From an uncultured Gammaproteobacteria bacterium (GTDB taxonomy: Bacteria; Patescibacteriota; Microgenomatia; UBA8517), in assembly GCA_964599625.1 (NCBI GenBank), contig CAZRGC010000002.1, positions 7,883-71,882 on the forward strand: a stretch of DNA of 64,000 nt, read 5' to 3'. Positions 23,242 to 46,879 of this stretch are shown one piece after another (positions within the stretch are counted from its first letter, which is position 1; every line of letters starts with the position of its first letter). Made by a program: the position numbers and the translations under genes. The notes below the pieces were generated by a model. It worked only from the letters and a program-made list of their open reading frames with translations. It did no database searches and was not told where the DNA came from.

Positions 23242-23303
23242 TTCCTAATCACTTTGTTCCTGTTCTATTAACTATTCCCTAGTCCCTAATCTCTAATCAC
23301 TAC
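23229..23303. repeat. right inverted repeats of the same family (several CTAATCAC(T/C) / CCCTAATC copies)
   Basis: ctaatcacc (23231-23239), cctaatcact (23244-23253), ccctagtccctaatctctaatcactac (23277-23303). Confidence 0.55.
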
Positions 23304-29462: not shown

Positions 29463-29721
29463 AATTCTTGATAGAACCGCACTCCCGTTACATGGCAGTG
29501 AAGTCTAAAAAGAGTATATGTAAGCGGCAGAAAGGGTGTCAATAGGGTTTAACTATTAGCACCGAAATTGACATATTAGAGTAGGAATTGATATAGATTT
29601 TCTTTAACTTTTTGCGGTAATTTTTTCACCAAAAAGCTATTTATTTTTCAAAAAAATTTTTTTTGGACTTTGAGTTGTTGCAAAACCTGATACATTTGTG
29701 CCGAGAAAGATGCAGATATAG

Positions 29722-32025
29722 TTATGCCGTAGTATCTTCTATTAAAGTTATTGTGGTTGTGAATCCGGAAGATGTAATTGTTCCGGTTGTTGACGCGGGG
29801 TAATACTTTGTGTCCCCGGTTGAGGATTTTCTTACTCTGATATAAATATCTGTGTCCGATGTGTAATTAAATGTTTCTGTGGCAATCCCCGAGGCGTTTG
29901 TGTCTTCGTTCATGAGTTGCAAAGCATCGCTGGATTGATAGATGGCTGTTTGTGCGTTTTCAACGGGAGAGTTGTTTGCATCTACTACGGTTACCTTCAA
30001 AGTAACGGCATTATTTTTAACAATTGTCGCACCAGCCGTCCTAACACTTGGAGTACTTCCGCCGCCTGTTACATTAATTGTTACAGTACCGCTTGCTATG
30101 TTTACATAAATTGCTTCATTTCCGGTTGACCCGTCGGTTCCTGCGTATCCACTGAAAGTGTTTCCATCAAAGTCGAAAGCACCTGCTGTCCCAGACACCT
30201 CAATGGCGTGTCCTGTGCCACTGCTTACGAAGGAACAATTTGTTATATTTTCAAGGTCTGAAACTGTGGCTGAGGTGACTTTTGTGTTTGTAAACGTACA
30301 ATTATTTAAGACTGCTGAATTCTGAGTAAATGTAGTGCAGTTAATAAACGACACGGTGTCTAGTGTAACTGTTGATCTAAGTGTGACTGTGGCGTTGACG
30401 ACAGAAGTGCCAAGAAAATTTACATCCGCACTCGCCGAATGTGAGGAGTTGAAGCGCCAGTAGTAAGACGAGTCCGACACAAACAAACAGTTGGTGAAAT
30501 GTAGTAGGTCGTTTGAATCTACCCCATAGAATTCCACTCCAAGGGAGTTGTTGTTGACATGGAAGTCGACATAATCTGTTTCATCAGCCTGTGTAGGCCA
30601 CTGGAATGTTTTCAAGTTGCAAGAAATGCCAATGCTCGCGACCCCGCCAAACTGGAGTGGAATCCAGATTTGTCCCAAAGCACCGGTTTGTTGGATCACG
30701 GGAATGTTTCCGCAACCAGAGTTAACCATTGTTACTAAATCATTAAAATTGAACGGATTGGTGGTTGTTCCTCCTGCGATTACAGCTGTTCTGAGTTCCC
30801 AAAGTTCGTTCCAAAGAACAGAAGGTGCTCCGTAATATCCTGATGAGCCGAAAGCAAGGTAATCCAACGACGCAAAATCCGCGGTTCCTGCAGAGTCGTA
30901 TTGTGTGCTGGTGTAGCTTGGCTCAATCAAAAAGTTGTTGCGGGCACCAGGGTTGTCTGTCTTACTAAACTGCCCACCCACAACCCAGGCTCGCCAATTA
31001 CCTGAAGTTGAACCTAAAATAATATATTTTCCACCCTGAACAGCCTTCCCTGTGTCTACATAGTCTCGTGGAGCCAGATGCAGGTATGTTCCAAATATTA
31101 AGTCCCCAGTTGTTACATCGATAGGCGAAGCACGGTTCAGTTCTACATGGTTGAGGTTCGTTGTAGATGAAGCCCCTGCATTCCTCATTGATCCTCGAAA
31201 CGGATTGTAACCAGAATCGGCGGTTGTGGCGACGGCCACACCTGTGACAGTCTTGCCTGCAACAGATGTTATGGCAATGCTGACTGCAGCTATATAAGTA
31301 CCAATATCGGGACCGGTGTCACCCGTAGTTCCCGTTAATGATGATATAAGCACAGATGGGGTGACTGAGAGCGGGATATAGGGTGGCTTGATTGTTCCGC
31401 TTGATCCATCGCGGATTTCTATAATCTGACCTCTTCCGTCATCAGCAGTTGCTCCCCACAGAGAAGGAGCAGAAACTACTGTTGAGGCAGATGGAACAAA
31501 AGAGTAAGCAGCAGCAAGCCCACCAGCTGCTACGTCGATTGCGGCAAGATTCACCCAAGGCGGCAAGTGTGATGTACCAGCTGTTGTATCCTGATTCCTT
31601 GAATGAATAACTATGGAATTATCATAAGCGGTTGTAAGTCCAACCCCTGTAAATGGTAGAGTGGAGCTATCTGAACTTTGCCGGGCAGAGGTTGGGATGG
31701 CATCAGCAACGGTTGAGCCGTAAACATCTTTAACAGCGATAATGATTCCGGCACAAGTTTCGCTTGTGAGAGTAAAGGTAACTGTCTCTGAAGAAGATGT
31801 TGCGCGTTTTGCCCATATTCCACCAGCCGAACCCGCAGTTGTCCCGCTTTGTATATTAGTCCATCCACCGGGGGTGGAGAAGTTTGCTGCCGTGTCTTTG
31901 CCAAGACATGCAACCAAAAGATCGCCAGTCTGGTGCTCCGGCATCTCCATTACCATGTTTGCAGTAGCGGTAGAGTAGAGCGTAAAAGCTGTGTCGCGTA
32001 TCTCAGCCATATTTAAAAAAATCAT
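29722..32025 (-). CDS. giant beta-helix surface protein paralog G1
   Basis: 767 aa; N-domain (GDLLVACLGKD ... GGIWAKRATSSSET); NC-containing beta-helix repeats (FTNCLFVSDSSYYWRF); conserved C-terminal module ending YIRVRKSSTGDTKYYP ... TITLIEDTTA. Confidence 0.7.
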   Translation of the reverse strand: MIFLNMAEIRDTAFTLYSTATANMVMEMPEHQTGDLLVACLGKDTAANFSTPGGWTNIQSGTTAGSAGGIWAKRATSSSETVTFTLTSETCAGIIIAVKDVYGSTVADAIPTSARQSSDSSTLPFTGVGLTTAYDNSIVIHSRNQDTTAGTSHLPPWVNLAAIDVAAGGLAAAYSFVPSASTVVSAPSLWGATADDGRGQIIEIRDGSSGTIKPPYIPLSVTPSVLISSLTGTTGDTGPDIGTYIAAVSIAITSVAGKTVTGVAVATTADSGYNPFRGSMRNAGASSTTNLNHVELNRASPIDVTTGDLIFGTYLHLAPRDYVDTGKAVQGGKYIILGSTSGNWRAWVVGGQFSKTDNPGARNNFLIEPSYTSTQYDSAGTADFASLDYLAFGSSGYYGAPSVLWNELWELRTAVIAGGTTTNPFNFNDLVTMVNSGCGNIPVIQQTGALGQIWIPLQFGGVASIGISCNLKTFQWPTQADETDYVDFHVNNNSLGVEFYGVDSNDLLHFTNCLFVSDSSYYWRFNSSHSASADVNFLGTSVVNATVTLRSTVTLDTVSFINCTTFTQNSAVLNNCTFTNTKVTSATVSDLENITNCSFVSSGTGHAIEVSGTAGAFDFDGNTFSGYAGTDGSTGNEAIYVNIASGTVTINVTGGGSTPSVRTAGATIVKNNAVTLKVTVVDANNSPVENAQTAIYQSSDALQLMNEDTNASGIATETFNYTSDTDIYIRVRKSSTGDTKYYPASTTGTITSSGFTTTITLIEDTTA

Positions 32026-32068
32026 AGCACAAATTGTTGGCTCGATATGCTAAGTTATTGTTGCAAAA

Positions 32069-33697
32069 ATGATGGACAATTTTTCAGTCAGACTTAGAGT
32101 TGCCCTGCTCCTGGCTTCTGCACTAATTCCTGCACTAATATTCATTGGAGGAGGTGTTTACTATCGTTATTCTGATGCTTCTGGTAATGCAATAAAGGAA
32201 CTATCCAACTCTTCAAGAAATTTCTCAAAAGAACAAGCGCAAAATATCGAAGGTGCAAGACAACTTCTTGTTGCTGTTTCGCAAACACCGCAAATAACAA
32301 TGTTTGATAAGAGAATGTGTGGGAACTATCTCGCGACTTTGTTAAATAATTTTTCCAGATATGCGAATTTTGGTGTTGCGGCAACAAATGGAGATGTAAT
32401 ATGCTCCGCAGTTCCTATTGATTTGCCTGTCAATGTAAAAGACAAGTTGTATTTCAAAAAAGTTTTAAACTCCAAAACTTTTAGCGTTGGAGAGTATAGC
32501 ATTGGAAACATTACAGGCAAGCCTGTCTTAAATTTTGGTTACCCAATACTAAACTCTAATGGTGCTTTGATTGGGGTGGTTTTTTCTTCACTCGACCTCG
32601 GTTGGATGAATGATTTCTTGTCTGCGAGTTTGGAAGGTGAAGATACTGTGCTTATGGTTCTTGATCATGAAGGCACTATAATGGCGAGAAATATAGATCC
32701 GGGTTTGTGGATAGGTAAATCGTTTGCAAAAGATCCACTTTTTCAAAAAATATTACAAAAAGGCGGGGGAGCCACCGATCTTGTGGGAATTGACGGAATA
32801 AAACGGCTTTACGCTTTTCAGAAGCTTGGAGAATCTGATTCGGCATATGTTGTTGTTGGTAAAACTCAAAACGAGGTATTTAAGGGGGCAATATCCAGCC
32901 TAAAGACAAGTTTGTTGGTGGTTCTGTTAATGGGAATTATGATTGCAGTTGTTTCGTACAGGATTGGAAACATTTTTATAATAAAAAAGATTGAAGATTT
33001 ACAGGAGATAGACAGGTTAAAAAGTGAGTTCGTCTCAATCGCATCTCACCAGTTAAGGACGCCCCTTTCTGCCATAAACTGGTTTTTGGAACTATTGGAT
33101 GATGAAAAAAATAAACTGACAACCTATCAAAAGAAAATTGTTAGGAATATTAAGGAGTCAAACGGAAGGATGATTGATCTCGTGGAATCGCTTTTGAATG
33201 TGTCCAGAATTGAGTCAAAAAAGTTAAAAGTTGAGCGTGCCGAGGTTGAAGTAAACAAAGAAGTTAAAAAAGTTGTGGATGCAGTTTCCCCAAAGACGAT
33301 AATGAAAAAACAACGGTTCGTGTTCAAACCCAATTCAGCCCGGCTGCTTATTGATGTAGACCCAAAACTTTTCTTTCAGATTGTGAACAACATAGTCACA
33401 AACGCTATCAAATACACACCGCCAAAAGGAAAAATAATTGTTAACGTTTCCTCCAAAAATTCCCGTGCGGTTGTCAAAGTTGCAGATAGTGGTTATGGTA
33501 TTTCAAAACAAGATAAAGGTAAAATTTTTCAGAAATTTTTCAGAGGAGCAAATATTTCCGGTCGCGATATCGAAGGGACAGGTCTTGGGCTTTTTATAGC
33601 AAAGTCAATCGCCGAAGAAATGGGTGGAAAAGTTACTTTTACAAGTACAGAAGGAAAAGGGTCGACATTTTACATTTCATTCCCAGTGCAATCTTAA
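32069..33697 (+). CDS. sensor histidine kinase with periplasmic double-Cache-like domain (HK1)
   Basis: TM, Cache-like sensor, TM, HisKA (IASHQLRTPLSAINWF), HATPase (ADSGYGIS ... GTGLGLFIAKSI). Confidence 0.85.
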   Translation: MMDNFSVRLRVALLLASALIPALIFIGGGVYYRYSDASGNAIKELSNSSRNFSKEQAQNIEGARQLLVAVSQTPQITMFDKRMCGNYLATLLNNFSRYANFGVAATNGDVICSAVPIDLPVNVKDKLYFKKVLNSKTFSVGEYSIGNITGKPVLNFGYPILNSNGALIGVVFSSLDLGWMNDFLSASLEGEDTVLMVLDHEGTIMARNIDPGLWIGKSFAKDPLFQKILQKGGGATDLVGIDGIKRLYAFQKLGESDSAYVVVGKTQNEVFKGAISSLKTSLLVVLLMGIMIAVVSYRIGNIFIIKKIEDLQEIDRLKSEFVSIASHQLRTPLSAINWFLELLDDEKNKLTTYQKKIVRNIKESNGRMIDLVESLLNVSRIESKKLKVERAEVEVNKEVKKVVDAVSPKTIMKKQRFVFKPNSARLLIDVDPKLFFQIVNNIVTNAIKYTPPKGKIIVNVSSKNSRAVVKVADSGYGISKQDKGKIFQKFFRGANISGRDIEGTGLGLFIAKSIAEEMGGKVTFTSTEGKGSTFYISFPVQS

Positions 33698-33741
33698 TTG
33701 TTTTGAAACAAACGTTGTGGTAATTTTAGACAAGGGCAAAA

Positions 33742-34176
33742 ATGGCAGTCAAAAAACACAAAAAAATATCAGTACTCGTTGTAGAGGATGATAAAAATAT
33801 TGCAATTGCATATGAAATGAAATTTGCCAGAGTGGGTTTTAATGCGAAAATTGCAAATAGCGGGAGAGCAGCTTTTGAAGCATTAAAGAGTTTTAGTCCC
33901 GATGTGATAGTTTTAGATCTTATTATGCCGGTTATTGATGGATTCGAGGTTTTGAGGCAACTTAAAAATCATCCCCATCACAAAAAAATTCCAGTAATTG
34001 TTGCTTCAAATCTGGGCGGAGAAACAGATATAAATGAAGCTTATGAATTGGGGGCTGCAGAGTATATTGTCAAAACAAAATCAACGCTTGAAGATTTAGT
34101 ATCCAAAGTGAATCAGCTTGCAGAACAATATCAGGAAACAACAGTGTCTTCAATCAAAGTGACAGTTGCTGAATAG
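33742..34176 (+). CDS. single-domain response regulator (REC only, RR1)
   Basis: VLVVEDDKN ... DVIVLDLIMPVIDG ... receiver fold, no output domain; 3' end overlaps G2 convergently by 46 nt. Confidence 0.8.
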   Translation: MAVKKHKKISVLVVEDDKNIAIAYEMKFARVGFNAKIANSGRAAFEALKSFSPDVIVLDLIMPVIDGFEVLRQLKNHPHHKKIPVIVASNLGGETDINEAYELGAAEYIVKTKSTLEDLVSKVNQLAEQYQETTVSSIKVTVAE

Positions 34177-36479
34177 CCTGAGGATGTGACCGTACCCGAA
34201 GAACTGTTCACGAAATATTTTGTATCCCCAGTAGAAGATTTTCTAACTCTTATGTAAACATCGGTGTCTGACGTATAGTTGAATGACGCCTCGGCCACAC
34301 CACTCGCATTTGTCAGCTCATTCATAAGCTCTGCATCGTCACTATTTCTGTAAATTGCTGTTCTGGCATTTTGAATAATAAACCCAGCCTCGTCTTTGAC
34401 GGTTATCTTTAGTGTAACTGCATTGTTGATGATGGTTGAAGCACTCGCTCCATTTCTGTATGTGGGAGTATTGCCCCCACCTGTAATGTTAACAGTAACC
34501 GCTCCGCCGGAATCGTTGTAGATTGCAGCAGAAGTGGTTCCATCTGCTCCAAATCCGGTAAACGTATTTCCGGAGAACGAATAAGTTCCCGGGCTTGTGA
34601 TCCTGAATGCATGACCAGCAGAACTGGTTCCCTGAAAATTGCAATCAGAAAAGATGGAGGGGTCGGTAACCGAAGTCAAGTAATTTCCGGCGGACGTCGT
34701 GTCAACTCCAAATGTGCAACCATCGTATGTAGTTGAAGCATTTGATGTAAGACTGTTATTTACATTTGGGGGATCGGTTATCGTGGAATTGGTTAAGTCG
34801 CAGTTTGACGCATCAACGGTGGAGTTGATGAAAGACATAGAACTGAAAGTTGTCACATCTCTCAGGGTAACAAGTGCTCCGGCAACTGAAGTTCCGGAAA
34901 AATCCCATGCGGCACTGTTACTGGCGCTTGCGGCTATTCTCCAGTAGTATCTTGAGTCGGAAGTAAACACGCAGTTGGTGAAACTGCAGGTGTCGCCACT
35001 TCTAGCATCAAATTCCACCCCAACCTGATCTGTGTCAACATGCCAGTTACAAACCCGAGTTGTTGCGTTGTATGCAACCGGGAATTGGAACGTGCGTAGG
35101 TTTACATTTACATGAATTGGATCAACTCCGCCAAATTTAATAGGGTTCCAAATTGTTGCAGCAGATCCCTCTCTTTGTAAAATTGGATAAAGTGAAGATC
35201 CGTTTACAAATCCATCTACTACGCCTGTAAAATCCAAAGGAGTAGCAGAAGTCCCACCAGCGAGAGTTGCAACTCCGGAAACCATAAGGTATGACAAGTA
35301 TATTGACGTAGCCCCAAATGGGGAGGAGTGTGCTGCCATCAAAGTGTCGATTGCGTCGGCATTGAAGGTTCCACTTGAAGCCCATGATGTATCTGTAGAT
35401 TGTCCCGGCTGAATTGCAAAGAGATTTCTTCCGTCAGGTTTCGTTGTGGGAGAATCTTTTGCTCCAACTATCCAACTTTTGTAATCGTTCCCTGCATCAA
35501 GAAGGGTAAATGTTGTGCCTTTGTGGGCATCAAAAAAACCAAAGTCTACCCAGTCTCTGGGGGTGGTAAAAGCGAATGACGATAATAAATAATTACCCGA
35601 CCAATCTTGCGAGGAGAACCCGGCCTCTGCCCCGTATAAAGTATCTCCCGCGGGGTTTGCTACAGGAGAATTAAGGAAAGTACTCATATATGGGTTTATT
35701 CCACGATCTGTTGCATTTCCCAATGCGTCATAGGTTACAGTTTTACCCCCCATTGAGCTAATGGTTACCGATGCGGGTAGGGAAGTAAAAAACTCACCGG
35801 CGGTTGCGTTTGTAAACTGTGTTAAAAACTGCATCTGTGAATCTGCAACGTACCCGTGCACAATTGAGTTACTGCCGTCATCTCTAATTTCGATGGTGTG
35901 TATGAGGGCTGAATCGTTGATACGTCCATCGAAGTTAACATTAACACTACTTCCTGACGTGGGGTAGAATTTCCAAGCAATTCCGCATGAATTTGCACCA
36001 GCGTCACCATAGTAAAGCGCTTGGGATTCACCAGGCAGTGGCGTTGGCGATACGCCGCCATCAGAAGTAAATCCGTGAATAATTAAAGAGTTGTTCCATG
36101 TGGTTGTAATTGTTTGATTCTGTGTCCAAGGCCTGGTTGAGTCGATAGACGAAAGTGTTGCTGCGGGGTCCTGAGAGGTGTGTGCACCACGAATTACAAT
36201 TGTCACAATGTGGTATGTATCGAGTGCAAAAGTAAATGAAGCGGCTGTTTCGGAGGATCCTGTTGCACGTTTCCACCAGACCCCGCCCCATCCGCCACCA
36301 TCACTCGAACCCGTCAAATTGTTGTAACCTGAAGATGATGTCTCAGACATACTCCCAGTACCGTCTTTATTGGCAATTACCAATATGATGTCGTTGTTTG
36401 TGTGTGTTGGAATTGGAGCTGTGGCGGAGGTGGCAGTGGTTGTACCTTGAACTTCGTCTGATGAAAATATATAAGCCAT
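34131..36479 (-). CDS. giant beta-helix surface protein paralog G2
   Basis: 782 aa; same N-domain and C-terminal module as G1 (YIRVRKSSTGDTKYF ... TVTLIEDTVVS). Confidence 0.7.
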   Translation of the reverse strand: MAYIFSSDEVQGTTTATSATAPIPTHTNNDIILVIANKDGTGSMSETSSSGYNNLTGSSDGGGWGGVWWKRATGSSETAASFTFALDTYHIVTIVIRGAHTSQDPAATLSSIDSTRPWTQNQTITTTWNNSLIIHGFTSDGGVSPTPLPGESQALYYGDAGANSCGIAWKFYPTSGSSVNVNFDGRINDSALIHTIEIRDDGSNSIVHGYVADSQMQFLTQFTNATAGEFFTSLPASVTISSMGGKTVTYDALGNATDRGINPYMSTFLNSPVANPAGDTLYGAEAGFSSQDWSGNYLLSSFAFTTPRDWVDFGFFDAHKGTTFTLLDAGNDYKSWIVGAKDSPTTKPDGRNLFAIQPGQSTDTSWASSGTFNADAIDTLMAAHSSPFGATSIYLSYLMVSGVATLAGGTSATPLDFTGVVDGFVNGSSLYPILQREGSAATIWNPIKFGGVDPIHVNVNLRTFQFPVAYNATTRVCNWHVDTDQVGVEFDARSGDTCSFTNCVFTSDSRYYWRIAASASNSAAWDFSGTSVAGALVTLRDVTTFSSMSFINSTVDASNCDLTNSTITDPPNVNNSLTSNASTTYDGCTFGVDTTSAGNYLTSVTDPSIFSDCNFQGTSSAGHAFRITSPGTYSFSGNTFTGFGADGTTSAAIYNDSGGAVTVNITGGGNTPTYRNGASASTIINNAVTLKITVKDEAGFIIQNARTAIYRNSDDAELMNELTNASGVAEASFNYTSDTDVYIRVRKSSTGDTKYFVNSSSGTVTSSGYSATVTLIEDTVVS

Positions 36480-36517
36480 CTTTCAAAAAAAATAATAACA
36501 CGGGGAGTATACAAAGT

Positions 36518-36889
36518 TTAACCCTTAACGTTTCTTAGTGTTTTGGCCACGAGTTCGTCCAAATCCAAATCGCTTTTGACTATATAGTCTGTTGTCCCTG
36601 CGGTACCTTGTTCATCCTCTGGTAAATTACTTGCTACAATTACTGGTATTTTTCCCAATCTTTCGTCACTTTTTACACGTCTTAAAAATTCATACCCATC
36701 AATACCAGGAAGCAGTATATCAAGAACTATAACATCAGGAAGTTTTTTTTCAGTCTTCAAAAGCTCCAAACCTTCCTCGGCGGTTCTCACTGCATCAACT
36801 TTAAATTTCTTCTCTTCAAACTTATACTTCATGGCCTTGCCTATAAACTTATCGTCCTCGATTATTAAAACTTTTGGTGTTTTTTTCAT
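36518..36889 (-). CDS. single-domain response regulator (RR2)
   Basis: VLIIEDDKFIG ... DVIVLDILLPGIDG ... IPVIVASNL. Confidence 0.8.
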   Translation of the reverse strand: MKKTPKVLIIEDDKFIGKAMKYKFEEKKFKVDAVRTAEEGLELLKTEKKLPDVIVLDILLPGIDGYEFLRRVKSDERLGKIPVIVASNLPEDEQGTAGTTDYIVKSDLDLDELVAKTLRNVKG

Positions 36890-36931
36890 ATCAATGTATA
36901 TCTATTGTGTAGCAAATTTTAAACAAAATAC

Positions 36932-38590
36932 CTATATAGGAATAGTAACATAAAAAGTAGTTTTTCCTTTGGTGCTCTCAAAATAAATTTTCCCAATGTG
37001 TGCCTCAACTATTAGTTTGGATAGATAAAGACCTAGCCCTGCACCTTCGCCATCTACAATCTTTGCGTTAGAAGCTCTGGAAAACTTTTGAAACAAAATG
37101 TTTTTTTCGCTTTCAGGAATCCCGATTCCAAAATCGGTCACTGAAATTTGCAGGTTATTTCTCAATTTCGTAGTCGTCACGTAAACACTGCCTTTTTCGT
37201 TAGAATATTTAAATGCGTTGTTTATCAGATTTACAAGGAGTTGTCTAAACAATTTTTCATCAACAAATATTTTTTTCGGTGTTGCCTTGGCTATGTTTAA
37301 TTTAATGGTTAACTTTTTTGCTCTAAAACCTGTTTTAACTTCGTCAACAACACTATTAATTAGCGTTGTTGTTGTGACGCTGGTTTTGTCGGGTTTGATT
37401 TTTCCTGATTCCAATTTTGCTATTTGAAGCAGGATTGAAACCAGACCTGTCATTCTCTGGGTTGAGGCAAGTGTGTCCATAAGCAAGTCTCTCTGTTTCC
37501 GGTTTAGTTTTCCGGAAGAACCGGAAAGTAGAATTTGCGTAAACCATTTAATTGAGGTTATTGGAGTCCTTAATTGGTGGCTCACCAAGGAAACGAAATC
37601 GTGTCTTAGTTTTTCGATCGATTCAAGTTCCTCAATTGACCTGGATATTAACCATCTGCCCACATAAAAACCCACTCCGATAGACGCAAGAACGATCAAA
37701 ACTGAAAAGGCAATCACCTTATTAAAATATTGCTGGGAGCTTTTGTATATATCGTTTTTGGATTTTCCAACAGCCAAGTAAATACCCGGATTGTTGGCGC
37801 CAATTTTTTTGTATGAGTATATTCTTTCAACACCGTCTATTCCCGAGGACTGAACTGTTCCAAAGTCTTTTGTTAAACTCTTTACAAGAGGGTCTCCAGA
37901 GAATTCTTTTCCGATACAGTCGCAATTTAGGTCTGGATTTCTGGCCAGGATCACACCTTTTCCATCCAGAACCAAGACAACTATATTTTCATCTATCTCA
38001 ATAGATGCGAGAAAATCGGACAACCATTCGAGGCTGAGGGTTGCATAAACAACACCATGGCTGTTCTCCATGGGGTAGCCGAAGTTTATACTGGATTCAT
38101 TTGTAGTCCTGCTAACAACGTATTCTCCAACTGAAAAGTTATTTGTTTTTAATGTCTCTTGAAAAAACAGTCTGTCTGATAAGTTTATATTTGTAATAGG
38201 TGTGACTGCAGAACAAATAACGTCACCCTTCAAATTTGAAACACCAAAATTACCATATCTTTGGTATTTTGTTAATAAGTTGGACAAATAATTGTTACAT
38301 ATACTCTTACCAGATTTAACTTCTGGAGTTGCAGAAAGAGTTACGAGTAATTGTCTTGCACCTTCAATTATTTGTGTATTCTCAGATGCTATGGACTTGG
38401 CGATGTTGTCTAGTTTTTCAATCTCCAAGTCTTTTGAAATTTTAAGTTGATTTAAATTTATTCCTGCGATAAGGATAAAAACTGGAGTAAGAGTTGCAAT
38501 AGTCAAAAAAAGCACCCTTGCTCTAACTCGGTTGTACGACTTATGCATTTGTATCTTCGTCAAGTGAAATCGTAACTGAGAATCCTGCAT
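36932..38590 (-). CDS. sensor histidine kinase with Cache-like sensor (HK2)
   Basis: VSLVSHQLRTPITSIKWF HisKA; HATPase (TDFGIGIP ... GAGLGLYLSKLI); overlaps the G3 3' end by 50 nt. Confidence 0.85.
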   Translation of the reverse strand: MQDSQLRFHLTKIQMHKSYNRVRARVLFLTIATLTPVFILIAGINLNQLKISKDLEIEKLDNIAKSIASENTQIIEGARQLLVTLSATPEVKSGKSICNNYLSNLLTKYQRYGNFGVSNLKGDVICSAVTPITNINLSDRLFFQETLKTNNFSVGEYVVSRTTNESSINFGYPMENSHGVVYATLSLEWLSDFLASIEIDENIVVLVLDGKGVILARNPDLNCDCIGKEFSGDPLVKSLTKDFGTVQSSGIDGVERIYSYKKIGANNPGIYLAVGKSKNDIYKSSQQYFNKVIAFSVLIVLASIGVGFYVGRWLISRSIEELESIEKLRHDFVSLVSHQLRTPITSIKWFTQILLSGSSGKLNRKQRDLLMDTLASTQRMTGLVSILLQIAKLESGKIKPDKTSVTTTTLINSVVDEVKTGFRAKKLTIKLNIAKATPKKIFVDEKLFRQLLVNLINNAFKYSNEKGSVYVTTTKLRNNLQISVTDFGIGIPESEKNILFQKFSRASNAKIVDGEGAGLGLYLSKLIVEAHIGKIYFESTKGKTTFYVTIPI

Positions 38591-41500
38591 TTGTGATTGT
38601 TCCAGTAGTGGACGTAGGAACGTACTTTGTCTCGCCTGGCGAGGATTTTCTGACCCTTATATATATAGGTGTATCAGTTATGTAGTTAAAACTCTCGACA
38701 GCAACACCGTTTGTTGCAGTGCCGGTTCCGGACCCTGCGCCTGTTGCTGTAAAAATCACTCCTATGGTGTTACTGGCAGCTCCTATTGCAGTAAAGTCTG
38801 TAGATCCGACAGACACAATTCTATATTTTACACTTGTTACAAAGGAGCCTGCAGTCACAGTTTCTGTATCTTCGTTCATAATTTGTGAATCATCGCTTGT
38901 TTTGTAAACTGCAACTTGTGCAAGATTGATTGGCCCGTTGTCGGCTTTATCCAAAACTGTGATTGTGAGGTTGACGGCGTTATTGACGGTTGTTGATGAT
39001 CCGTCGGAATTTCGGATGGATGGGGTGCTTCCACCGTTTGTTACATTAATTGTTACAGCTCCGCCTGAGTTGTTGTAAATTGCCGCAGCGGCGGAATATA
39101 TGTATTGGGTTCCTGAACCTGTAGCTGTTATGTCAGCCCTTCCGGTTGCCCCTCCCGCAATTGCGTGGTCAGAGGTGTCGTAAAGTGTAATAGTGGTGGA
39201 TGACTCGCTTCTTACATAATACAAGTTGCCATCTGTAAGGCCTGTTGGAGCCGTGCCGCCTTGGTCTTGGAAATAGGCAGGTTCACCATTATTGTATCCA
39301 TGAGCGGCGTCCAGTGTAATTACATCTGTTCCTGTGTTAACTCCTGTTGAGGCGTTGAAACTTCTTGCAGCCGGGCCATATCCTGTAAAAGAATTGCCGG
39401 AAAAACTGACTGTTCCGGTTGAGGTAAGCCTGACGGCATGACCCGAGGTGGTTGACCCTATAAAATTACAACCGGAAAACATATCCAGATCAGCTGTTGC
39501 AACAGACGCCCAGCGGTTACCTGCTGTAACTGTTGTTGTGGTTATGTCTGTGTTTGAAATCACAGTTGTACTTGAGGTTGTAACGGAATCATTGGTTGAT
39601 GGCATGTTAAGGATGTATCCATAGTCATAAGTCAGCCCGCTGACATCAAGGGTAGAATAGTCGTTGACTGTTAGTCCGGTAACTGTAATCGCTTTATTTA
39701 AAGTTACTGTTCCGGCTCCAATAACGGACAAACCTGAAAAGTCATACGTCGCAGAAGTTGAGGCCGATGCGTGCAGACCCCATTTGTATCGGGAGGGTGA
39801 AGAAACGACGCTATTGGTATGCGATATAACATCGCTTGCCCCCGGATAGTACGTAATCCCTGCAAAGTTATCAATACTGTTGTAATAAACTTCCTTTTGT
39901 GCCTTGTTGTATTTTCTGGGGAACTCAATGGCTGTTGCATCAAGACCTAAATAAATTGGACTGGTTCCACCGTCCCCGAACTGAATCGGACCAAGGACAA
40001 GCATTTGACTGGTTCCCTGGCTGATTGCGCTTCTCCTTTCGTGTCCTGTTGCATACGCTCCAACTGTGCCAATGATATTTAGAGGTTCGGCGCTACTTCC
40101 ACCAGAAATTACACAAGTATCCATTGCCCAAACCGACCCGCCGTTCCAGTCCGGGGAAACATTTTTGCCGGAAATCATAAACCCGATTTCTGTAATGCTT
40201 CCAGTATTTAAAGATCCTGTGGTTTGAATAACGCCGTCTGTAGCATCTGTGTTTATAACAACGGGCTGATGAAACTGTGTACCCCAAGATGTTCCGGCTC
40301 CTGCCACATGCCAAACTTTGAAGTTGCTGGTGGTCGAAGCAAGCCCAATTGCAACTCCAATTGTTCCGGTCAAAGCAACAGAATCGGTGGTCTGAATTTC
40401 CACGGGAACTAACGGGTTTACATGGAAAAGAATGTTTTTACTTGCAAGTGTGGTTCTTGCGACAATTGTAGTTCTTGTTCCGGCCCAGCTACCTGCTGTT
40501 GCAATTCCGGAACAGCGGCTCATAGCGTGATAAGAGTTGAGACCGTAGTCTGCAGTTGTCACTGTTGTTCCGCCTGTTGCCAAAGTTTTGCCATTTATGG
40601 TTCCTGTAAATGGCGTAGTGATTGTATTAGTGGTTGCAGAGTCACCGTTATACGCAGCTCCTGTATAGGGGGTAACATAAACAGAGGAATCGGAAGCTGT
40701 ATATCCTGGAATAACTGGTGTGCCGACTCCTTTTGATCTTATGGCCCAAACAGCCAGACGGGTTGCCGCGGCAGAAATGGTTGAATATCCAACTGTGGCG
40801 GTGGTTCCTGCTGTTGCCTGCCAGCCCCACGAACAAGCATCAGAATGTGCCGAACCGTCTTTTCCAAATATCAGTTGGCATGCCCCCTCAATAATACTGG
40901 GTACCCCGGCGGTTGAATTTGCTGCACCCCACATAACTAGACAGTTATTAACATCGGTGGACATTGTTGGAAGGTTTGCCTTAGCAGATGAAGTTGTTGA
41001 CACTGCAAAACCAGTGGTGTTTCCAAAGAGCCAATTTGTAACACGTTCATTTCCGTTGCCAGTTTCGTTTACAAGCCCTGATGTGTCTGTAACTGTAATA
41101 ACAGTTGAGGTAACACTTTGAATTATTTTATATGTGTTATTTCCGCCGTTTGTAAAACCAGTAGTTTTAATAGCCATTCCTGCAGTAAATCCGTCAGTTA
41201 GAAAGTCACCCGTTGTTCGTGTAAATGTTCCACTTGAAGCTACGACATCTATTTGGACTGCGTTATATGTTTTTGTATCACACCATGGATCCACATCTCT
41301 AACCGATATGATTGACCCATTTGCTGTTTCAGCGATGGAATATGTAAAGGTGGTGTCTACTTCACTTGCTGTAGCGGTTTTATATAAAACTGCCAAATTA
41401 GAAGTATTTGATGATGAAAATAGCTGCTGCCAGCCTGATTGCAGAAATACCTGAGTACCAACAGGGCGGGTGGTTATAGACGTAAACGCGCTAACACGCC

Positions 41501-42017
41501 CTCTGATATAGTAGGCAGAAACGGAGTTGACAGTGGTTGAAGCCCAATTTGTTGGCATTGTATATGTCACTGCAACCGGAATAGTAACTGCCGCCTTGAA
41601 ACCTGTAGTTCCATCGGAAACCCCGGATAGGGCAGTCCAGCTTCCTCCGTTCCAATATTCCCAGGTTATTGTCCACGTACCTGCTCCTTGTGTACTAAAT
41701 TGAAACCATGCAGCAGTAAATGGAGTAGAACCACCTACATAAAAAGCATCATTAACTGCCGGAGCTACTGGGATAAAAAAGGTGTCTGCTGTTGTAGTGT
41801 TATTTGATTCTGTGGTGTAGTTCGTAAAAGCACCACCGTCGTCGTATTGGGCTGATGTATTTGGGTCAAGTCCAGTCCAAGCCTGAGTAGTTCCCGTGTC
41901 TGCAGACATTACAGCAATCAAAAGATCTCCCTGTTCGTAAGCTGGAATCGGAACCTCCAGATGTCGTAGTGATGTTGTTGTGTTGTAAGCTTGGGAAAAG
42001 TCTCGAATTGCGGGCAT
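38541..42017 (-). CDS. giant beta-helix surface protein paralog G3
   Basis: 1158 aa; N-domain (GDLLIAVMSAD); WEYWNGGSWTALSGVSDGTTGF module shared with G0; C-terminal module with an extra ~50-aa insertion (TVTAGSFVTSVKYRIVSVGSTDF ...) before YIRVRKSSPGETKYVP. Confidence 0.7.
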   Translation of the reverse strand: MPAIRDFSQAYNTTTSLRHLEVPIPAYEQGDLLIAVMSADTGTTQAWTGLDPNTSAQYDDGGAFTNYTTESNNTTTADTFFIPVAPAVNDAFYVGGSTPFTAAWFQFSTQGAGTWTITWEYWNGGSWTALSGVSDGTTGFKAAVTIPVAVTYTMPTNWASTTVNSVSAYYIRGRVSAFTSITTRPVGTQVFLQSGWQQLFSSSNTSNLAVLYKTATASEVDTTFTYSIAETANGSIISVRDVDPWCDTKTYNAVQIDVVASSGTFTRTTGDFLTDGFTAGMAIKTTGFTNGGNNTYKIIQSVTSTVITVTDTSGLVNETGNGNERVTNWLFGNTTGFAVSTTSSAKANLPTMSTDVNNCLVMWGAANSTAGVPSIIEGACQLIFGKDGSAHSDACSWGWQATAGTTATVGYSTISAAATRLAVWAIRSKGVGTPVIPGYTASDSSVYVTPYTGAAYNGDSATTNTITTPFTGTINGKTLATGGTTVTTADYGLNSYHAMSRCSGIATAGSWAGTRTTIVARTTLASKNILFHVNPLVPVEIQTTDSVALTGTIGVAIGLASTTSNFKVWHVAGAGTSWGTQFHQPVVINTDATDGVIQTTGSLNTGSITEIGFMISGKNVSPDWNGGSVWAMDTCVISGGSSAEPLNIIGTVGAYATGHERRSAISQGTSQMLVLGPIQFGDGGTSPIYLGLDATAIEFPRKYNKAQKEVYYNSIDNFAGITYYPGASDVISHTNSVVSSPSRYKWGLHASASTSATYDFSGLSVIGAGTVTLNKAITVTGLTVNDYSTLDVSGLTYDYGYILNMPSTNDSVTTSSTTVISNTDITTTTVTAGNRWASVATADLDMFSGCNFIGSTTSGHAVRLTSTGTVSFSGNSFTGYGPAARSFNASTGVNTGTDVITLDAAHGYNNGEPAYFQDQGGTAPTGLTDGNLYYVRSESSTTITLYDTSDHAIAGGATGRADITATGSGTQYIYSAAAAIYNNSGGAVTINVTNGGSTPSIRNSDGSSTTVNNAVNLTITVLDKADNGPINLAQVAVYKTSDDSQIMNEDTETVTAGSFVTSVKYRIVSVGSTDFTAIGAASNTIGVIFTATGAGSGTGTATNGVAVESFNYITDTPIYIRVRKSSPGETKYVPTSTTGTITNAGFSVTISLDEDTNA

Positions 42018-42145
42018 ATTTATTTATTAAACGTCCAGATATGTTCTGTTTCTACTTTGTAGTCCAATTTTAGTTTTCTCAATGCTGAAACAACCTCGTC
42101 TAGATTCGAATCATGTCCACAAATTAGTTTTTTACACTTTGGCAT

Positions 42146-42535
42146 CTAACTTTTTATGTCATTAAAAACACCTTCAAAAGTATGATCCCCATCGATAAAC
42201 ACCATATCAATAGATTTAGCTTTAAAAAAACTGCTTGCCTTTTTGCTGTCGGTTCGCATGGTTACCAAATTTTTAAAGTGACCAACATTTTTATAAAAGT
42301 TTTTATATATGTCATGGTTTTTAGCTTCTTTATGTGTAGTATCCCTCTCATCAACACTTCCCTGAAAATGATCAATTGCAAATACAACACCTCTGCAACC
42401 AGTCAAGAGTGCATGCGTACTTTTACCTTTCCATGAACCTATTTCAACAATTGAGTCCATTTGCCTTGCTTTTTCGTACAACCAATCAAGTTCGTTGTCA
42501 TTCATCCATCCGTCAATATTGTTGCCCTTATACAT
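42146..42535 (-). CDS. class I SAM-dependent methyltransferase (TylF/Methyltransf_24-like)
   Basis: Motif I IVEIGSWKGKST, MVFIDGDH. Confidence 0.6.
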   Translation of the reverse strand: MYKGNNIDGWMNDNELDWLYEKARQMDSIVEIGSWKGKSTHALLTGCRGVVFAIDHFQGSVDERDTTHKEAKNHDIYKNFYKNVGHFKNLVTMRTDSKKASSFFKAKSIDMVFIDGDHTFEGVFNDIKS

Positions 42536-42536
42536 A

Positions 42537-43178
42537 TTAATAGAATGCTACTCCAATATGTTTCACTTGGATTGTGGGATCACACCAGACAGAAATACCG
42601 TGTTTTCTTGCAAGTTCACAAAACCAAACATCTTCACCAGTCATTCCTTCCGGGTCGCTACTTGGCCTAAAGAAAAACCAAGGTCTGGGTAGTTTTTCAA
42701 AAACTTCCATTTTAACTAACATGAATCCTGTTCCAACGGCCCTGCATTCAAATGGTTTTTGAGGATTGTCTATTGTGGCCAGGCGTTTATTTTTGTCATT
42801 TGGATCAACTGTGAAGGTTATGTCGTCAGTCTTTAATTTTTTTGGGTCAAGAAGAGTGACAGACTTTGGGGGATTTTCGCGGTAGTGATAGTCTGCCCCC
42901 ACTATTGGTTTGTCATCTTCCAACAGCTTTTCAATTCCGTTAGCAGGGAAGGCCATGTCGCTGTCTATAAACATCACATAGTCAGATTTCTCTTTTTGCG
43001 CATCAAGCACAATTTGCTCGCGATTTTCGTGAATATAGCAGCTTGTTGGGTGAGACAAGTGAAACATCACCCCTCGTGTGCTTGCAACTGCCACTGTGAT
43101 AGATAAGGACGTGTCGATTTTGATTGTTCCGTTTGAAGGAATGCCCACGGTAACTTTTTTAATAAGAGCATTGTTCAT
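42537..43178 (-). CDS. glycosyltransferase (GT-A fold, DxD)
   Basis: YVMFIDSDMAFP DxD motif; 1-nt spacing to the downstream methyltransferase gene. Confidence 0.55.
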   Translation of the reverse strand: MNNALIKKVTVGIPSNGTIKIDTSLSITVAVASTRGVMFHLSHPTSCYIHENREQIVLDAQKEKSDYVMFIDSDMAFPANGIEKLLEDDKPIVGADYHYRENPPKSVTLLDPKKLKTDDITFTVDPNDKNKRLATIDNPQKPFECRAVGTGFMLVKMEVFEKLPRPWFFFRPSSDPEGMTGEDVWFCELARKHGISVWCDPTIQVKHIGVAFY

Positions 43179-43371
43179 ACTTATGATGATATCAAATATA
43201 TTTTATTTGGGAACACAAAAAGCACTGATTTGGGAATTTTTATAAGCAAATTTATCATGGATGGAATAAGTGGCAAAATTTGGCTGGAAAAGTCGACGTT
43301 GGGTTAAGGTTCTTTTTTGCATTTAGCCTGCCACTTGCAAAAAGATAGGTCTCTCATGATAATGTACACAA

Positions 43372-43764
43372 ATGGCTAAAATTCTAATCGTCGAAGACGA
43401 CCCCCTCATGAGCCGTATGTATCAGAAAATTTTTAAATTCGAGGGTTATGATGTGGCAATGGCCGGGGACGGTGAGCAGGGACTAGAAGCCGCCAAAAAA
43501 GAAAAACCAACATTGATTCTTTTGGACGTTATGATGCCTAAAATGAATGGACTTCAGCTTTTGGAAAAACTTAAGTTGGATCCCGACACAAAGTCGATAC
43601 CTGTGGTGATGCTTACCAATCTCGCCGGAGAAAAGGATGCGGAGGTGGCACTCACAAAAGGGGCAGTTAAATATATTGTTAAGTCGGAATATGAGCCAAA
43701 GCAGATAACAGATATGGTAAAAAGCATTTTGGCAGGTTACACTCGGGACGAGCTTCCCAAATAG
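43372..43764 (+). CDS. single-domain response regulator (RR3)
   Basis: ILIVEDDPLM ... TLILLDVMMPKMNG ... IPVVMLTNL. Confidence 0.8.
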   Translation: MAKILIVEDDPLMSRMYQKIFKFEGYDVAMAGDGEQGLEAAKKEKPTLILLDVMMPKMNGLQLLEKLKLDPDTKSIPVVMLTNLAGEKDAEVALTKGAVKYIVKSEYEPKQITDMVKSILAGYTRDELPK

Positions 43765-43778: not shown

Positions 43779-44168
43779 ATGTATAATCACGTACTTTATT
43801 TTGGATACTGGTTGGCAACATCAGTATCACTTTATGTTTTTTATTCAATCTTTCCTGATAGTGTGGTACTTGGAAACTGGAGATTTGGAATGGTTGAATC
43901 GGCTTTTTATGCCGGTTTTTGGGTCACGTTTTTTATATGGTGTTTTTGGGACTTTGCTATTGCAAAAGGACTGCAATTTGAAACACCATTGGTTTCTTTG
44001 GGCTACTTTTGGTCTGTGAATTTGTTCTCTGTTTGGCTTGTTGCCAGATTTTCTCAATATTCTGGATTGGGAATATCAGACCACATTTGGGCGGTAGTTG
44101 TTGGTTTGGGTGCCCATTCACTCCAAAGGTTGGTAAGAAAAATTGTAGTTTCCCGTTCAAAAGATTAA
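43779..44168 (+). CDS. small membrane protein (hypothetical)
   Basis: 129 aa, 4 TM. Confidence 0.4.
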   Translation: MYNHVLYFGYWLATSVSLYVFYSIFPDSVVLGNWRFGMVESAFYAGFWVTFFIWCFWDFAIAKGLQFETPLVSLGYFWSVNLFSVWLVARFSQYSGLGISDHIWAVVVGLGAHSLQRLVRKIVVSRSKD

Positions 44169-44668
44169 TCGGGATCAAGAACTGATCTGTCTTCGCCGCT
44201 TTCGCTATCTGAACCACTTGAATCATCTATTGTTTCTTTCTGCCCGCCTCCGTTAAAAAGTGACCAAATTCCTTTAAGAGCAAAACCAATAACTCCCAGA
44301 ATCAAAAGAACGCTTCCGTAAGCAATTGAAAGTGTCCACTGGATCGTTGTCATCTTGAATCCATTTGCAAGTTGTTGAATAGAATAGAACTCGGCCAAAA
44401 GACCGATAAAAACTATTATTGCAATTTTTGCAAAGTATTTTCCTTCAATTAAACCAACAATTATCATTACGGATATAAATAATGCAACACTTCGTATTAC
44501 AATAGCCGCGGCAGTGAATGGATATAAATTTAAAAGCACTGGAGACGTTAGAAAGGCCACAGGATTGCCAACTGTTATTGAAACGGGTCCAGCAAGCTTA
44601 TCAATGAGATATGCCAGTAAAAAGGCTACTACAGCGACTCCAAGCCACACCTCTTTAGAAATTTTCAT
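44165..44668 (-). CDS. membrane protein (hypothetical)
   Basis: 167 aa, 4-5 TM, acidic C-terminal tail. Confidence 0.45.
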   Translation of the reverse strand: MKISKEVWLGVAVVAFLLAYLIDKLAGPVSITVGNPVAFLTSPVLLNLYPFTAAAIVIRSVALFISVMIIVGLIEGKYFAKIAIIVFIGLLAEFYSIQQLANGFKMTTIQWTLSIAYGSVLLILGVIGFALKGIWSLFNGGGQKETIDDSSGSDSESGEDRSVLDPD

Positions 44669-44679
44669 GCAAATAGTTT

Positions 44680-45669
44680 TTACACGCTTGGGTGGTTTTG
44701 GTCAAGTGGGAACGGATCATCTTTTACAAACTTTATCCAGTCATAATATGTAATCACAAGTGTTATAAAAAGCGTAAGTGATATAAATACAACGTTTACT
44801 AACATCATTTCATACAAATCTTTAAAAAGCTTGTTTTGGGGAATTCCAATTATTGCATAAAAGTCGCCATCTCCAGATGACTCCTGGATTTTTGAATAGA
44901 AAAATCGACGTTCTTTACCATCAAAACCTTTCTCCACAAAATTGCCAGCATAACCGCCGGAAAGTACCCTTTTGACAAGTTCTGTTTGGCTTTGGTCAGT
45001 TCCAAAGTAAGCTTCTGTTTCTGGATATCTCGACAAAACTGTTCCATGCCTGTCAATTACATCAATAACCGAACCTTTAGGGAAGTCGTATGGTGTTGTT
45101 ACCTCTTGCAACCATTCTAAATTGAGACTGGTAATAATGACTGCACTTGTGGTTGAATCACTAACAATTGGATAAACAAACGGAACAATTGGACGTTGGG
45201 TTACCCTTCCTACCCGGAATTCACCGACAGTAAACTCCATTTTTCTTACTGCCTTTTTGTAGTAGTCTAAATCTGAAACATTTACCGAAACACCTTCCGG
45301 ACTAGAACTACAAAAAACATCACCGTTTTTATCCACTATGTTAAAACTTGTGTATTGGTTTCCGAATTCTGCGTGTATTTCTGCCATTTCTTTATTGCAA
45401 AGATCAACTTCGGATGGGTTTATGTGATCTAGAGAAGATATAGTTTTAAGAATTGCCTTGGTGGTTCTAATCTTTTCTCTATATGTTTGCGAAACTGTTT
45501 CTAATATAAAATTAACGTCATTTTGCGTTTCTACAAAACCAATGTGGTTAAGTCTTATATATGAGTAAGTTGTCAGCAAAAACATAGGAATCAATGAGTG
45601 CACGACTATAAAAAAAATCTTGAACTTAAGACTCCTGTGATTGTGTTTGGGTTTTGGAATATTTTTCAT
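44680..45669 (-). CDS. Cache-like sensor membrane protein lacking kinase domains (orphan or truncated HK sensor)
   Basis: TM-Cache-TM layout homologous to the HK1/HK2 sensors (NIVDKNGDVFCSSSP ... DLDYYKK versus ATNGDVICSAVP ... KDKLYFKK); ends after TM2 without HisKA/HATPase. Confidence 0.6.
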   Translation of the reverse strand: MKNIPKPKHNHRSLKFKIFFIVVHSLIPMFLLTTYSYIRLNHIGFVETQNDVNFILETVSQTYREKIRTTKAILKTISSLDHINPSEVDLCNKEMAEIHAEFGNQYTSFNIVDKNGDVFCSSSPEGVSVNVSDLDYYKKAVRKMEFTVGEFRVGRVTQRPIVPFVYPIVSDSTTSAVIITSLNLEWLQEVTTPYDFPKGSVIDVIDRHGTVLSRYPETEAYFGTDQSQTELVKRVLSGGYAGNFVEKGFDGKERRFFYSKIQESSGDGDFYAIIGIPQNKLFKDLYEMMLVNVVFISLTLFITLVITYYDWIKFVKDDPFPLDQNHPSV

Positions 45670-45672: not shown

Positions 45673-46293
45673 TTAAAAAACGTTATCATAATAATCATAT
45701 GTCAGACTCGCTCTGTTGGTCCAGTTTGTGGTAAATGACGAAGTTCCTTTTACGTACCGATAACTTGAGCCGTCGTCTCTCAGGATAAACCAGTTTCCTG
45801 ATTTATTGATATAACCTGCGTATGTATATGTCAGGCCATCATCAAGTTCCGCTATTTTGTATCCATCAGTGGGGTGCTTTTCTGCTGGGTCTATTTTGTT
45901 GCCAGATGAGTCTTTCAAAGAAACAGTTCCTGGTCCTGGTACACTTCCAAAGAACGCAGCCTCAGCTCTTTTAGTGAACAGAGAGAATATAAAAAGCGAT
46001 AAACCTGCTGTCCCAATGAGTTTCAGAAATGCGCGTCTGTCTACGTCTACTCCTGCTTTTTTCAGTTTTTCATTTTCCGGGGACAAATCTTTTTCAAGGA
46101 TGACTACCTTGCTTTCTTCTAGAGGGCGTATTGCCCTGTTTCTTCGTGGATAAATTTTGGCCATAAAATACGCCATTAATGGGAAAAAGGCGATAGCCAC
46201 CAATAGCTGCGTGTAGTTGGTTGCTGTTAAAAACCCTGCAACAACTATAAATGCAACAACAATAAAGTTGTAATACAACAAAAACTTATTCAT
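45673..46293 (-). CDS. hypothetical protein with an internal twin-arginine (Tat) signal
   Basis: DVDRRAFLKLIGTAGLSLFIFSLFTKRAEAA (RRxFLK plus h-region plus AxA) after two N-terminal hydrophobic segments; an alternative start at MAYFMAK or MAKIYP is possible. Confidence 0.45.
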   Translation of the reverse strand: MNKFLLYYNFIVVAFIVVAGFLTATNYTQLLVAIAFFPLMAYFMAKIYPRRNRAIRPLEESKVVILEKDLSPENEKLKKAGVDVDRRAFLKLIGTAGLSLFIFSLFTKRAEAAFFGSVPGPGTVSLKDSSGNKIDPAEKHPTDGYKIAELDDGLTYTYAGYINKSGNWFILRDDGSSYRYVKGTSSFTTNWTNRASLTYDYYDNVF

Positions 46294-46876: not shown

Positions 46877-46879
46877 ACT

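Follow-up and report, generated by a model that had tools for sequence, protein, structure and literature searches.

Gene content of the island

We analysed a 64,000-nucleotide stretch of contig CAZRGC010000002.1 (assembly GCA_964599625.1), referred to here as the window, which contains an island of genes for phage tail-fibre-like proteins (the G proteins), membrane histidine kinases (HK) and single-domain response regulators (RR). The cellular genes of the window include those for RadA, a sortase, a GT2 glycosyltransferase, Rho, an M23/LysM peptidase, tRNA-Ala, TatA/TatC and VKOR, and its Rho is 79-83% identical to that of Candidatus Woesebacteria metagenome-assembled genomes (MAGs). There is good support for regarding the segment from 23.3 to 43.2 kb as a chromosomal island of a Candidatus Woesebacteria genome, inherited vertically and derived from a phage tail-tip module, and likewise for the conclusion that its fibre slot here holds three old, divergent G paralogs with two kinase/regulator pairs inserted among them.

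The conserved core of the island lies on the minus strand. It starts with G0 (26517..29462), which encodes a hub/baseplate-like protein of 981 amino acids (aa), continues with the small genes o142 (26079-26507), o61 (25847-26032), o89 (25591-25860) and o307 (24671-25594), none of which has a Pfam family, and ends with BH432 (23300..24598), which encodes a 432-aa beta-helix protein (Pfam Beta_helix, 1e-12). A 23S_rRNA_IVP/bAvd-like gene for a four-helix bundle (22849-23241) stands between BH432 and the right-hand flank of the island, which consists of two tatA genes (22550-22750 and 22389-22547) and tatC (21591-22331; Pfam TatC, 2e-37), all on the same strand. Upstream of G0 is the best sigma-70-like promoter match of the region (29513..29542, minus strand; TTGACA-18-TATACT, 11/12; a consensus match only). 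Promoter-like hits as a class were modestly above shuffles (55 versus 38 ± 6.6), and terminator-like hits showed no enrichment over shuffled sequence.

The fibre-and-sensor segment follows. G1 (29722..32025, minus strand) encodes a 767-aa tail-fibre/tailspike-like protein whose likely start, at the family-consensus MAEIRD (32010), leaves 58 nt to the divergent kinase gene HK1 (32069..33697, plus strand). The regulator gene RR1 (33742..34176, plus strand; 144 aa) converges with G2 (34131..36479, minus strand; 782 aa), the two overlapping by 46 nt. The minus strand then carries RR2 (36518..36889; 123 aa), HK2 (36932..38590; likely start 38548), G3 (38541..42017; 1158 aa, with extra inserted domains, one of them common to G0), a methyltransferase gene (MT, 42146-42535; Methyltransf_24, 3e-13) and a glycosyltransferase gene (GT, 42537-43178; phrog_1574, 8e-34, and a glycosyltransferase PHROG). 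Divergent from GT is the orphan regulator gene RR3 (43372..43764, plus strand; 130 aa). An earlier note on this DNA had given G3 and HK2 a 50-nt overlap; because the recorded form of HK2 has 538 aa, the junction is probably an 8-nt ATGCATAA stop/start instead. Judged from the sequence, G3, HK2, RR2 and G2 would almost certainly be read as a single transcript.

That note described the locus as a triplicated module, each unit consisting of a giant beta-helix surface protein, a kinase and a stand-alone regulator. Its open reading frame (ORF) coordinates and its domain calls (two dCache_1/HisKA/HATPase kinases and three receiver-only, or REC-only, regulators) are all borne out, as are the minus-strand order GT, MT, G3, HK2, RR2, G2, the convergence of RR1 with G2 and the paralogy of the three large proteins; G0, BH432 and a kinase-less sensor, Cache3, were absent from it. 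Taken literally, the description implies three Sec-exported giant adhesins, each with its own kinase and regulator. The gene order agrees with this, and in related loci all three regulator lineages again stand beside G-type genes. Such loci, numbered L below, are genomic or viral contig stretches found by homology, L001 being the MAG QY322. We nevertheless consider a true triplication very unlikely. There are only two kinase/regulator pairs, in different orientations, plus RR3, which is 1.35 kb from G3, beyond GT and MT and on the opposite strand; the close relative L160 has a single pair. The bodies of G1-G3 are 23-42% identical, G1 is nearer to phage alleles than to its paralogs, and the lineages are old and separate. 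The word giant does not fit proteins of 767, 782 and 1158 aa, and none has the signal peptide, LPXTG-type anchor or thousands of residues of a sortase-anchored giant adhesin.

Recent duplication, a shufflon and a diversity-generating retroelement were considered and rejected. No long or near-identical direct or inverted repeats occur in 22-46 kb of the window. Of the parts of a retroelement, an IVP/Avd-like gene is present at 22849-23241, but there are no template/variable repeats, and no reverse transcriptase among the ORFs scanned. Similar 23S_rRNA_IVP/bAvd-like genes also lie beside the island in L160 and L324.

A fibre, hub and spike trio shared with phages

Neither Pfam nor PHROG searches matched any of G0-G3 (nor did PHROGs match BH432), and annotation of G0-G3 was therefore taken from structure. 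An AlphaFold model of G1 made from 79 sequences (pLDDT 93.7, pTM 0.89) consists, by secondary structure and domain matches, of an N-terminal beta-sandwich (residues ~8-205), a second sandwich (~215-430), a right-handed beta-helix (~440-670) and a C-terminal sandwich (~672-767). The beta-helix of the earlier note is thus present, although it covers just ~235 residues of each protein. The model resembles the beta-helices of tailspikes and depolymerases, its top fold matches being polysaccharide lyases, epimerases and depolymerases, and it matches a Caudovirales protein along its full length. The fold of G0 resembles phage tail and contractile injection system (CIS) baseplate proteins, G0 and G3 both contain CBM32/discoidin-like inserts, and residues 57-274 of G3 match phage G0-type proteins.

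G1 and G2 are 37% identical from end to end, and G3 aligns with them piecewise (blastp). The last ~60 residues of G1-G3 are far more similar than the bodies (57-63% versus 23-42% identity), and the C-terminal ~60-130 residues of G0 are common to G1 and G3. A cell-specific C-terminal sorting domain was considered and rejected, because this module also occurs in phage homologs, including proteins encoded upstream of G0, and is therefore a family feature. The family is large. Clustered at 50% identity, the representatives recovered in a profile search number at least 958 at E <= 1e-30 and 2515 when the cut-off is relaxed to E <= 1e-10; all 99 word-indexed homologs of G1 are unnamed or tagged just 'hypothetical protein'. 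G0 has >744 homologs, labelled Woese-, Levy-, Beckwith- and Roizmanbacteria, WWE3 and Microgenomates. An alignment-pattern scan of GTDB species genomes for G found no relative, a result limited by the patterns used, such that absence is not proven, and GenBank phages yielded a single partial match, in Virus Rctr197k.

In IMG/VR, 26 loci carry G homologs at up to 61% identity to G1, flanked by genes for tail sheath (4e-72), tape measure, endolysin, UvsX and tail-fibre families; one of these contigs, L006, has a holin-endolysin cassette and an SbcD-like exonuclease. A scan with G0 returned 79 loci, four of which lie near genes for the major head protein (3e-78, two loci) or for head, tail and virion structural proteins. 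In ~70 of the viral contigs three genes are colinear: the first encodes a variable protein with a G-type beta-helix end and the common C-terminal module, the second is a G0 homolog and the third is BH432-like (an ORF of the last kind follows G0 in ~60 phage contigs). G1, G0 and BH432 of the window have the order of this trio, with four small genes between G0 and BH432, and full-length G2-like proteins are encoded immediately upstream of G0 in phage loci L172, L230 and L231. No kinase or regulator is found near G in the 26 loci, and no kinase, regulator or Tat gene in the trio-bearing ones.

The phage contigs that bear G range from 28 to 62% in GC content, with 34-39% for those of the L006 type, so the module is used by phages of many hosts; the trio contigs (L165-L243) are from 9 kb to ~450 kb long. 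A GT homolog lies immediately upstream of G in phage locus L018. G1 is closer to phage alleles (55-61% identity) than to G2 (37%) or G3, and the chromosomal G of L001 is 71-73% identical to the L006 viral allele, indicating that fibre alleles move between phages and these chromosomes.

The proteins lack recognizable export signals. No N-terminal hydrophobic segment, transmembrane (TM) segment or twin-arginine motif is present in G0-G3, BH432 or the small genes between them. The N-terminal hydrophobicity maxima of G0-G3 stay below 1.0, compared with >2 in secreted neighbours, and many other window proteins do carry signals. The G proteins end in ...IEDTTA, ...EDTVVS and ...DEDTNA. Tat export of island proteins was rejected for want of a twin-arginine motif in any of them, and the earlier description of the G proteins as surface proteins is hence unproven.

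Conserved core and variable fibre slot

To assess the conservation of the island, we compared it with related loci. The core order (G0, the small genes o142, o89 and o307, BH432 and, with no more than one gene in between, tatA/tatC) recurs in L001, L041, L160, L161, L164, L322 and L324. The tat genes are downstream of BH432, directly or past one gene, in L001, L160, L161, L322 and L324, and genes for PrsW and an 881-aa SH3 protein lie beyond the tat genes in L001, L041, L322 and L324. Lineage names here are source labels on proteins, L161 being labelled Levybacteria and the G0 protein of L324 Roizmanbacteria. The G0 and BH432 proteins of L160 both show 93% identity to their counterparts in the window, the BH432 of L324 shows 70%, and all ORFs are intact. 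Homologs of o142, o89 and o307 are present in L001, L041, L160, L164 and L324 and in none of the phage loci; o61 had no homolog hit in relatives. The adjoining gene TM2 (44165..44668, minus strand), which encodes a 167-aa protein with four TM segments and an acidic tail and without a Pfam or PHROG match, is likewise absent from phages; its homologs lie between G and G0 in L001, L041, L159 and L164 and immediately upstream of G0 in L322. The conserved core, the cell-only small genes and TM2 fit long vertical retention under purifying selection. TM2 has holin-like features, but with neither database in support its assignment as a holin would be speculation only.

A prophage would show integrase, terminase, portal, capsid and lysis genes beside the tail genes. 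This set is missing here: when the island and its flanks were searched with Pfam and PHROG, no capsid, terminase, portal, sheath, tube or integrase gene came up beside G0/BH432. We rejected prophage identity because these hallmark genes are lacking; the flanks are tatA/tatC on one side and membrane and sensor genes on the other. Marginal PHROG matches of o142 to an integrase (E 0.006) and of o89 to a tape measure (E 0.009) were not considered credible. Because the block adjoins tatA/tatC in Woese-, Levy- and Roizmanbacteria, it is best described as a long-retained, phage-derived island and not as a prophage.

The fibre slot behaves differently. Between the window and L160, G0 is 93% identical but HK2 is only 46%, RR2 75% and G3 62% identical; a different G follows the regulator, and L160 lacks HK1, RR1 and G1. 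The fibre-and-sensor segment therefore behaves as a variable cassette within conserved flanks. Proteins of 1237-1251 aa with 62% identity to G3 are encoded upstream of the kinase in L160 and L161, where the position of MT and GT upstream of G3 is not kept. Just upstream of the G3-like gene, these two loci (L160 2698-6086, L161 2557-6170) instead carry genes for a TPR-GT41 protein (OGT/HMW1C-type), an acetyltransferase and a DegT aminotransferase. MT and GT here and the glycan-related genes there hint at glycosylation of the fibre or of its receptor.

Other loci differ further. In L163 (5315-8004) and L164 (155-2405), four to five tandem paralogs of ~175 aa without a family match, followed by a 580-656-aa protein upstream of the kinase, replace the G3-like gene. 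L322 has a second phage-fibre-like gene near the island (20166-22457), for a protein of >1400 aa with collagen repeats and Peptidase_S74, a phage fibre chaperone. Genes for AbiEii, AAA_14-DUF4143, Fic, RhuM, ORF6N and a Y1 transposase are inserted at differing points of the island in L001, L159, L164 and L324. The island is an insertion hotspot in relatives.

Defence and mobile genes inserted in or beside the island of relatives, together with rapid turnover of the fibre slot within conserved flanks, raise the question of whether the island itself acts against phages. Tip proteins that stay in the cytoplasm could disturb infection by related phages: built into virions, they would make these defective or direct them to the wrong target, or else they could mask or trim the receptor glycan of the cell itself, with the kinases sensing envelope events during adsorption. 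A cytoplasmic location would fit the lack of export signals, and chromosomal G proteins up to 61-73% identical to phage alleles are near enough to co-assemble. We consider this unlikely. PADLOC gave no defence match for G0-G3, BH432, o307, o142 or the IVP gene, and for HK1 and RR1 it returned no more than general similarity to HATPase and REC domains. It would be odd for a decoy inside the cell to be triggered by an extracellular dCache sensor of small molecules, defence islands do not usually show the deep vertical conservation at one chromosomal site that G0 and BH432 have, and we know of no precedent for tail-fibre decoys.

The wider neighbourhood holds several further gene groups. Membrane proteins of 196, 213 and 881 aa end in SH3_3 (45673-47521, minus strand, and 18310-20955, plus strand); the neighbouring o206 (206 aa), only a weak paralog of the 196-aa protein, lacks an SH3_3 match, and the o206 and 881-aa genes also flank the island in L001, L041, L322 and L324. 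Within a few kilobases of the island are genes for a leucine-rich-repeat protein (51397-52155, minus strand) and a signal-peptide protein with a pretoxin-HINT domain, polymorphic-toxin-like (54068-55174, minus strand). Six consecutive paralog-sized genes (55889-63632, plus strand) encode proteins of 392-497 aa, each with one N-terminal TM segment, two of which have weak cupredoxin-like N-terminal matches.

Signalling pairs and a working model

The signalling proteins carry the kinase and receiver domains of a classical two-component system. HK1 and HK2 (38.5% identical) contain HisKA (2e-16 and 2e-13) and HATPase_c (2e-27 and 8e-23) domains in Pfam searches and two hydrophobic segments that flank the dCache sensor. 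Their H-box, SHQLRTP, is intact, as it is in seven orthologs. In RR1-RR3 (123-144 aa, 33-42% identical), Response_reg is the sole domain above the Pfam cut-off (8e-22 for RR1, 6e-27 for RR3), and the motifs EDD, (V/L)LD(L/I/V), (A/L)(S/T)N and (Y)IVK, read by eye, supply the acidic pocket, Asp, Ser/Thr and Lys of a receiver in all three. None has a DNA-binding output domain of the OmpR, NarL or NtrC type after the receiver. No Che or methyl-accepting chemotaxis protein domains were found in the window ORFs scanned that could supply CheA, CheW or chemoreceptor partners, and the kinases are of the HisKA and not the CheA type.

The kinase family is small and was found only in this setting. HK2 has ~27 full-length relatives in a collection of 5.8 billion proteins, with orthologs at 38-48% identity in seven of our loci, and 9 of 9 genomic contexts read lie in the island next to G-family genes, which exceeds what chance would give. 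The earlier note had named relatives with kinase and regulator unlinked from the G genes as evidence against its view; from the kinase side, all nine contexts are linked. RR2 orthologs (60-75% identity) occur in L001, L060, L159, L160, L161 and L164. A G3-like gene, HK, RR and G share one strand in L001, L159, L160 and L161, with gaps from a 4-nt overlap to 126 nt. The same HK, RR, G run in L164 brings these genomes to five, although the protein upstream of its kinase shares only the G C-terminal module, and L163 has the upstream half of the arrangement before the contig ends. HK1 and RR1 have orthologs (53% and 69%) in one genome, L162, in the layout of the window, with a divergent G1-like and a convergent G2-like gene, and an RR3 ortholog (71%) lies upstream of the island G-like gene in L324. 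At the level of sequence, then, two kinase lineages and three regulator lineages are each conserved in position, which makes a stronger case for coupling than the earlier within-genome argument.

The sensor region has diverged more than the kinase core in some ortholog pairs (51% versus 80% identity for sensor and kinase core between L001 and L164), which fits changing ligands. Sensor-only membrane proteins are also encoded beside the island. In the window this is Cache3 (44680..45669, minus strand), a dCache_1 protein (7e-17) with two TM segments and without a kinase core, related to the HK1 sensor (26% identity, E 2e-34); others are at L001 3181-4206, L162 11860-12945 and L322 8451-9446. The one in L322 has a CHASE domain and the others have a kinase-less dCache_1; all may be co-sensors or decoys for the kinases.

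The linkage bears on whether the island is an inert prophage remnant to which signalling genes are close by chance. G, G0 and BH432 do belong to families of phage structural proteins, and no complete prophage is present. Yet the long ORFs of the island are uninterrupted, the core proteins of L160 are 93% identical to those of the window, and the same site beside the tat genes is occupied in contigs labelled with three candidate phyla (Woese-, Levy- and Roizmanbacteria). The cell-specific genes o142, o89, o307 and TM2 are embedded and conserved, and the kinase family is found only here. We regard an inert remnant as extremely improbable.

A second use of the same parts would be nutrient scavenging of the kind served by polysaccharide utilisation loci (PULs), with G proteins as released depolymerases that cut polysaccharide of the environment or of a host and the kinases sensing the freed sugars or acids and tuning enzyme production. 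The lyase, epimerase and depolymerase fold matches and the CBM32/discoidin-like inserts agree with this, as does the predicted co-transcription of kinase and downstream G, and dCache domains (PF02743) typically bind small metabolites. It is nonetheless quite unlikely, given that export signals are absent, the island has no transporter or sugar-catabolism genes and the regulators lack a DNA-binding output. The order G, G0, BH432, moreover, mirrors a virion assembly module and so points to a structural complex over free enzymes.

Our working model is of a phage-derived tip island whose G proteins are predicted to be alternative fibres mounted on G0/BH432, glycan-binding and possibly glycan-cleaving, which the cell would use to recognise polysaccharide on the surface of a partner or host. 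With their dCache domains the membrane kinases would sense a small molecule outside the cell, and they would then phosphorylate the single-domain regulators; these in turn would act by protein-protein contact or phosphorelay, altering which fibre is made or used. Export of G, G0 and BH432 would be non-classical, the adjacent Tat system and TM2 being speculative candidates. As a whole, this reading of phage-derived fibres under kinase control has, in our estimation, slightly less than an even chance of being right. The more ambitious proposal that Microgenomates domesticated a phage receptor-binding tail tip as an organelle of partner or host recognition, with allele swapping with phages, dCache/REC control and signal-peptide-free export for which Tat or TM2 would be candidates, is doubtful.

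Several points weigh against the working model. Export is its main weakness: G, G0 and BH432 have no Sec signal, Tat signal or TM segment, so that surface display has no known route. Cleavage of glycans by G proteins would follow from fold resemblance only. The regulators are unable to bind DNA, and the window revealed no partner that carries an output domain. Linkage of the signalling genes to G is not obligatory: the dCache_1 pair is missing from islands L041, L035, L322 and L324 and from all ~100 phage loci, and G too is missing from L322, which makes the kinase pair accessory to the core. Contexts found from a kinase search are, in addition, biased towards linkage, and the nine are not independent trials, being all related by descent.

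If the model holds, it suggests that a small symbiotic bacterium placed phage receptor-binding hardware under sensor control. Bacteria of the candidate phyla radiation are thought to live attached to other cells, and most Microgenomates have no CRISPR. The island would then be a specific candidate either for the machinery of partner recognition or for a new type of phage interference, and the analysis provides a first fold-level annotation for two large families, G and G0, that lack a Pfam family.

Comparison with known systems

The closest structural counterparts of the G proteins are phage tailspike depolymerases (CBA120 TSP2/TSP4, the Klebsiella phage K1 lyase and capsule depolymerases), with which they share the right-handed beta-helix. 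As in multi-spike phages, several divergent fibre genes lie side by side, and G homologs are found in phage contigs. Sequence identity to solved phage spikes is, however, only 8-13%, and the N-terminal ~210 aa and the second sandwich of G are of the actinophage 'minor tail protein' type. The G genes are also chromosomal, without surrounding virion genes.

PblA and PblB of the Streptococcus mitis phage SM1 are tail-fibre proteins that become surface adhesins after lysis-dependent release. As phage fibres without signal peptides that have a cellular adhesion role, they may, by analogy, offer a model for how G proteins reach the surface. They differ in belonging to an inducible, complete prophage, whereas here there is no prophage, no lysis cassette was identified and the locus is conserved across phyla-level lineages.

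R- and F-type tailocins, extracellular contractile injection systems (PVC, AFP, AlgoCIS) and type VI secretion systems differ more strongly. Neither the sheath, tube, spike and tape measure of such machines nor an AAA+ ATPase was found in the window, and the island keeps only the tip module (fibre, hub and spike), with signalling genes embedded in it. A tailocin or contractile injection system was accordingly rejected, as none of the hallmark genes is among the window ORFs scanned and G0 is just baseplate-like in fold.

In Bacteroides, PULs encode glycan-active proteins with hybrid two-component sensors. The island is alike in placing proteins of a glycan-active type beside a membrane sensor able to read their products, and differs in its sensor architecture and in having no SusC/D-type transporters, catabolic enzymes or DNA-binding output. 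The signalling proteins themselves have close counterparts in Thermotoga maritima: the HK1 core matches HK853 and WalK-type kinases (E 1e-33 to 4e-39), and RR2 matches the single-domain RR468 (3dge_C, E 8e-10) and other receivers. The sensor sets the window kinases apart, being a periplasmic dCache_1 between two TM helices in a family found only in the phage-derived island.

Literature searches returned nothing on this locus or on a tip-only phage module combined with a signalling pair. The island belongs among domesticated phage tail parts, a known kind, and its kinases and regulators are ordinary as signalling proteins. What we did not find described is their combination with a tip-only phage module, retained at one site across several labelled Microgenomates candidate phyla, with a variable multi-fibre slot and signalling pairs found only within it.

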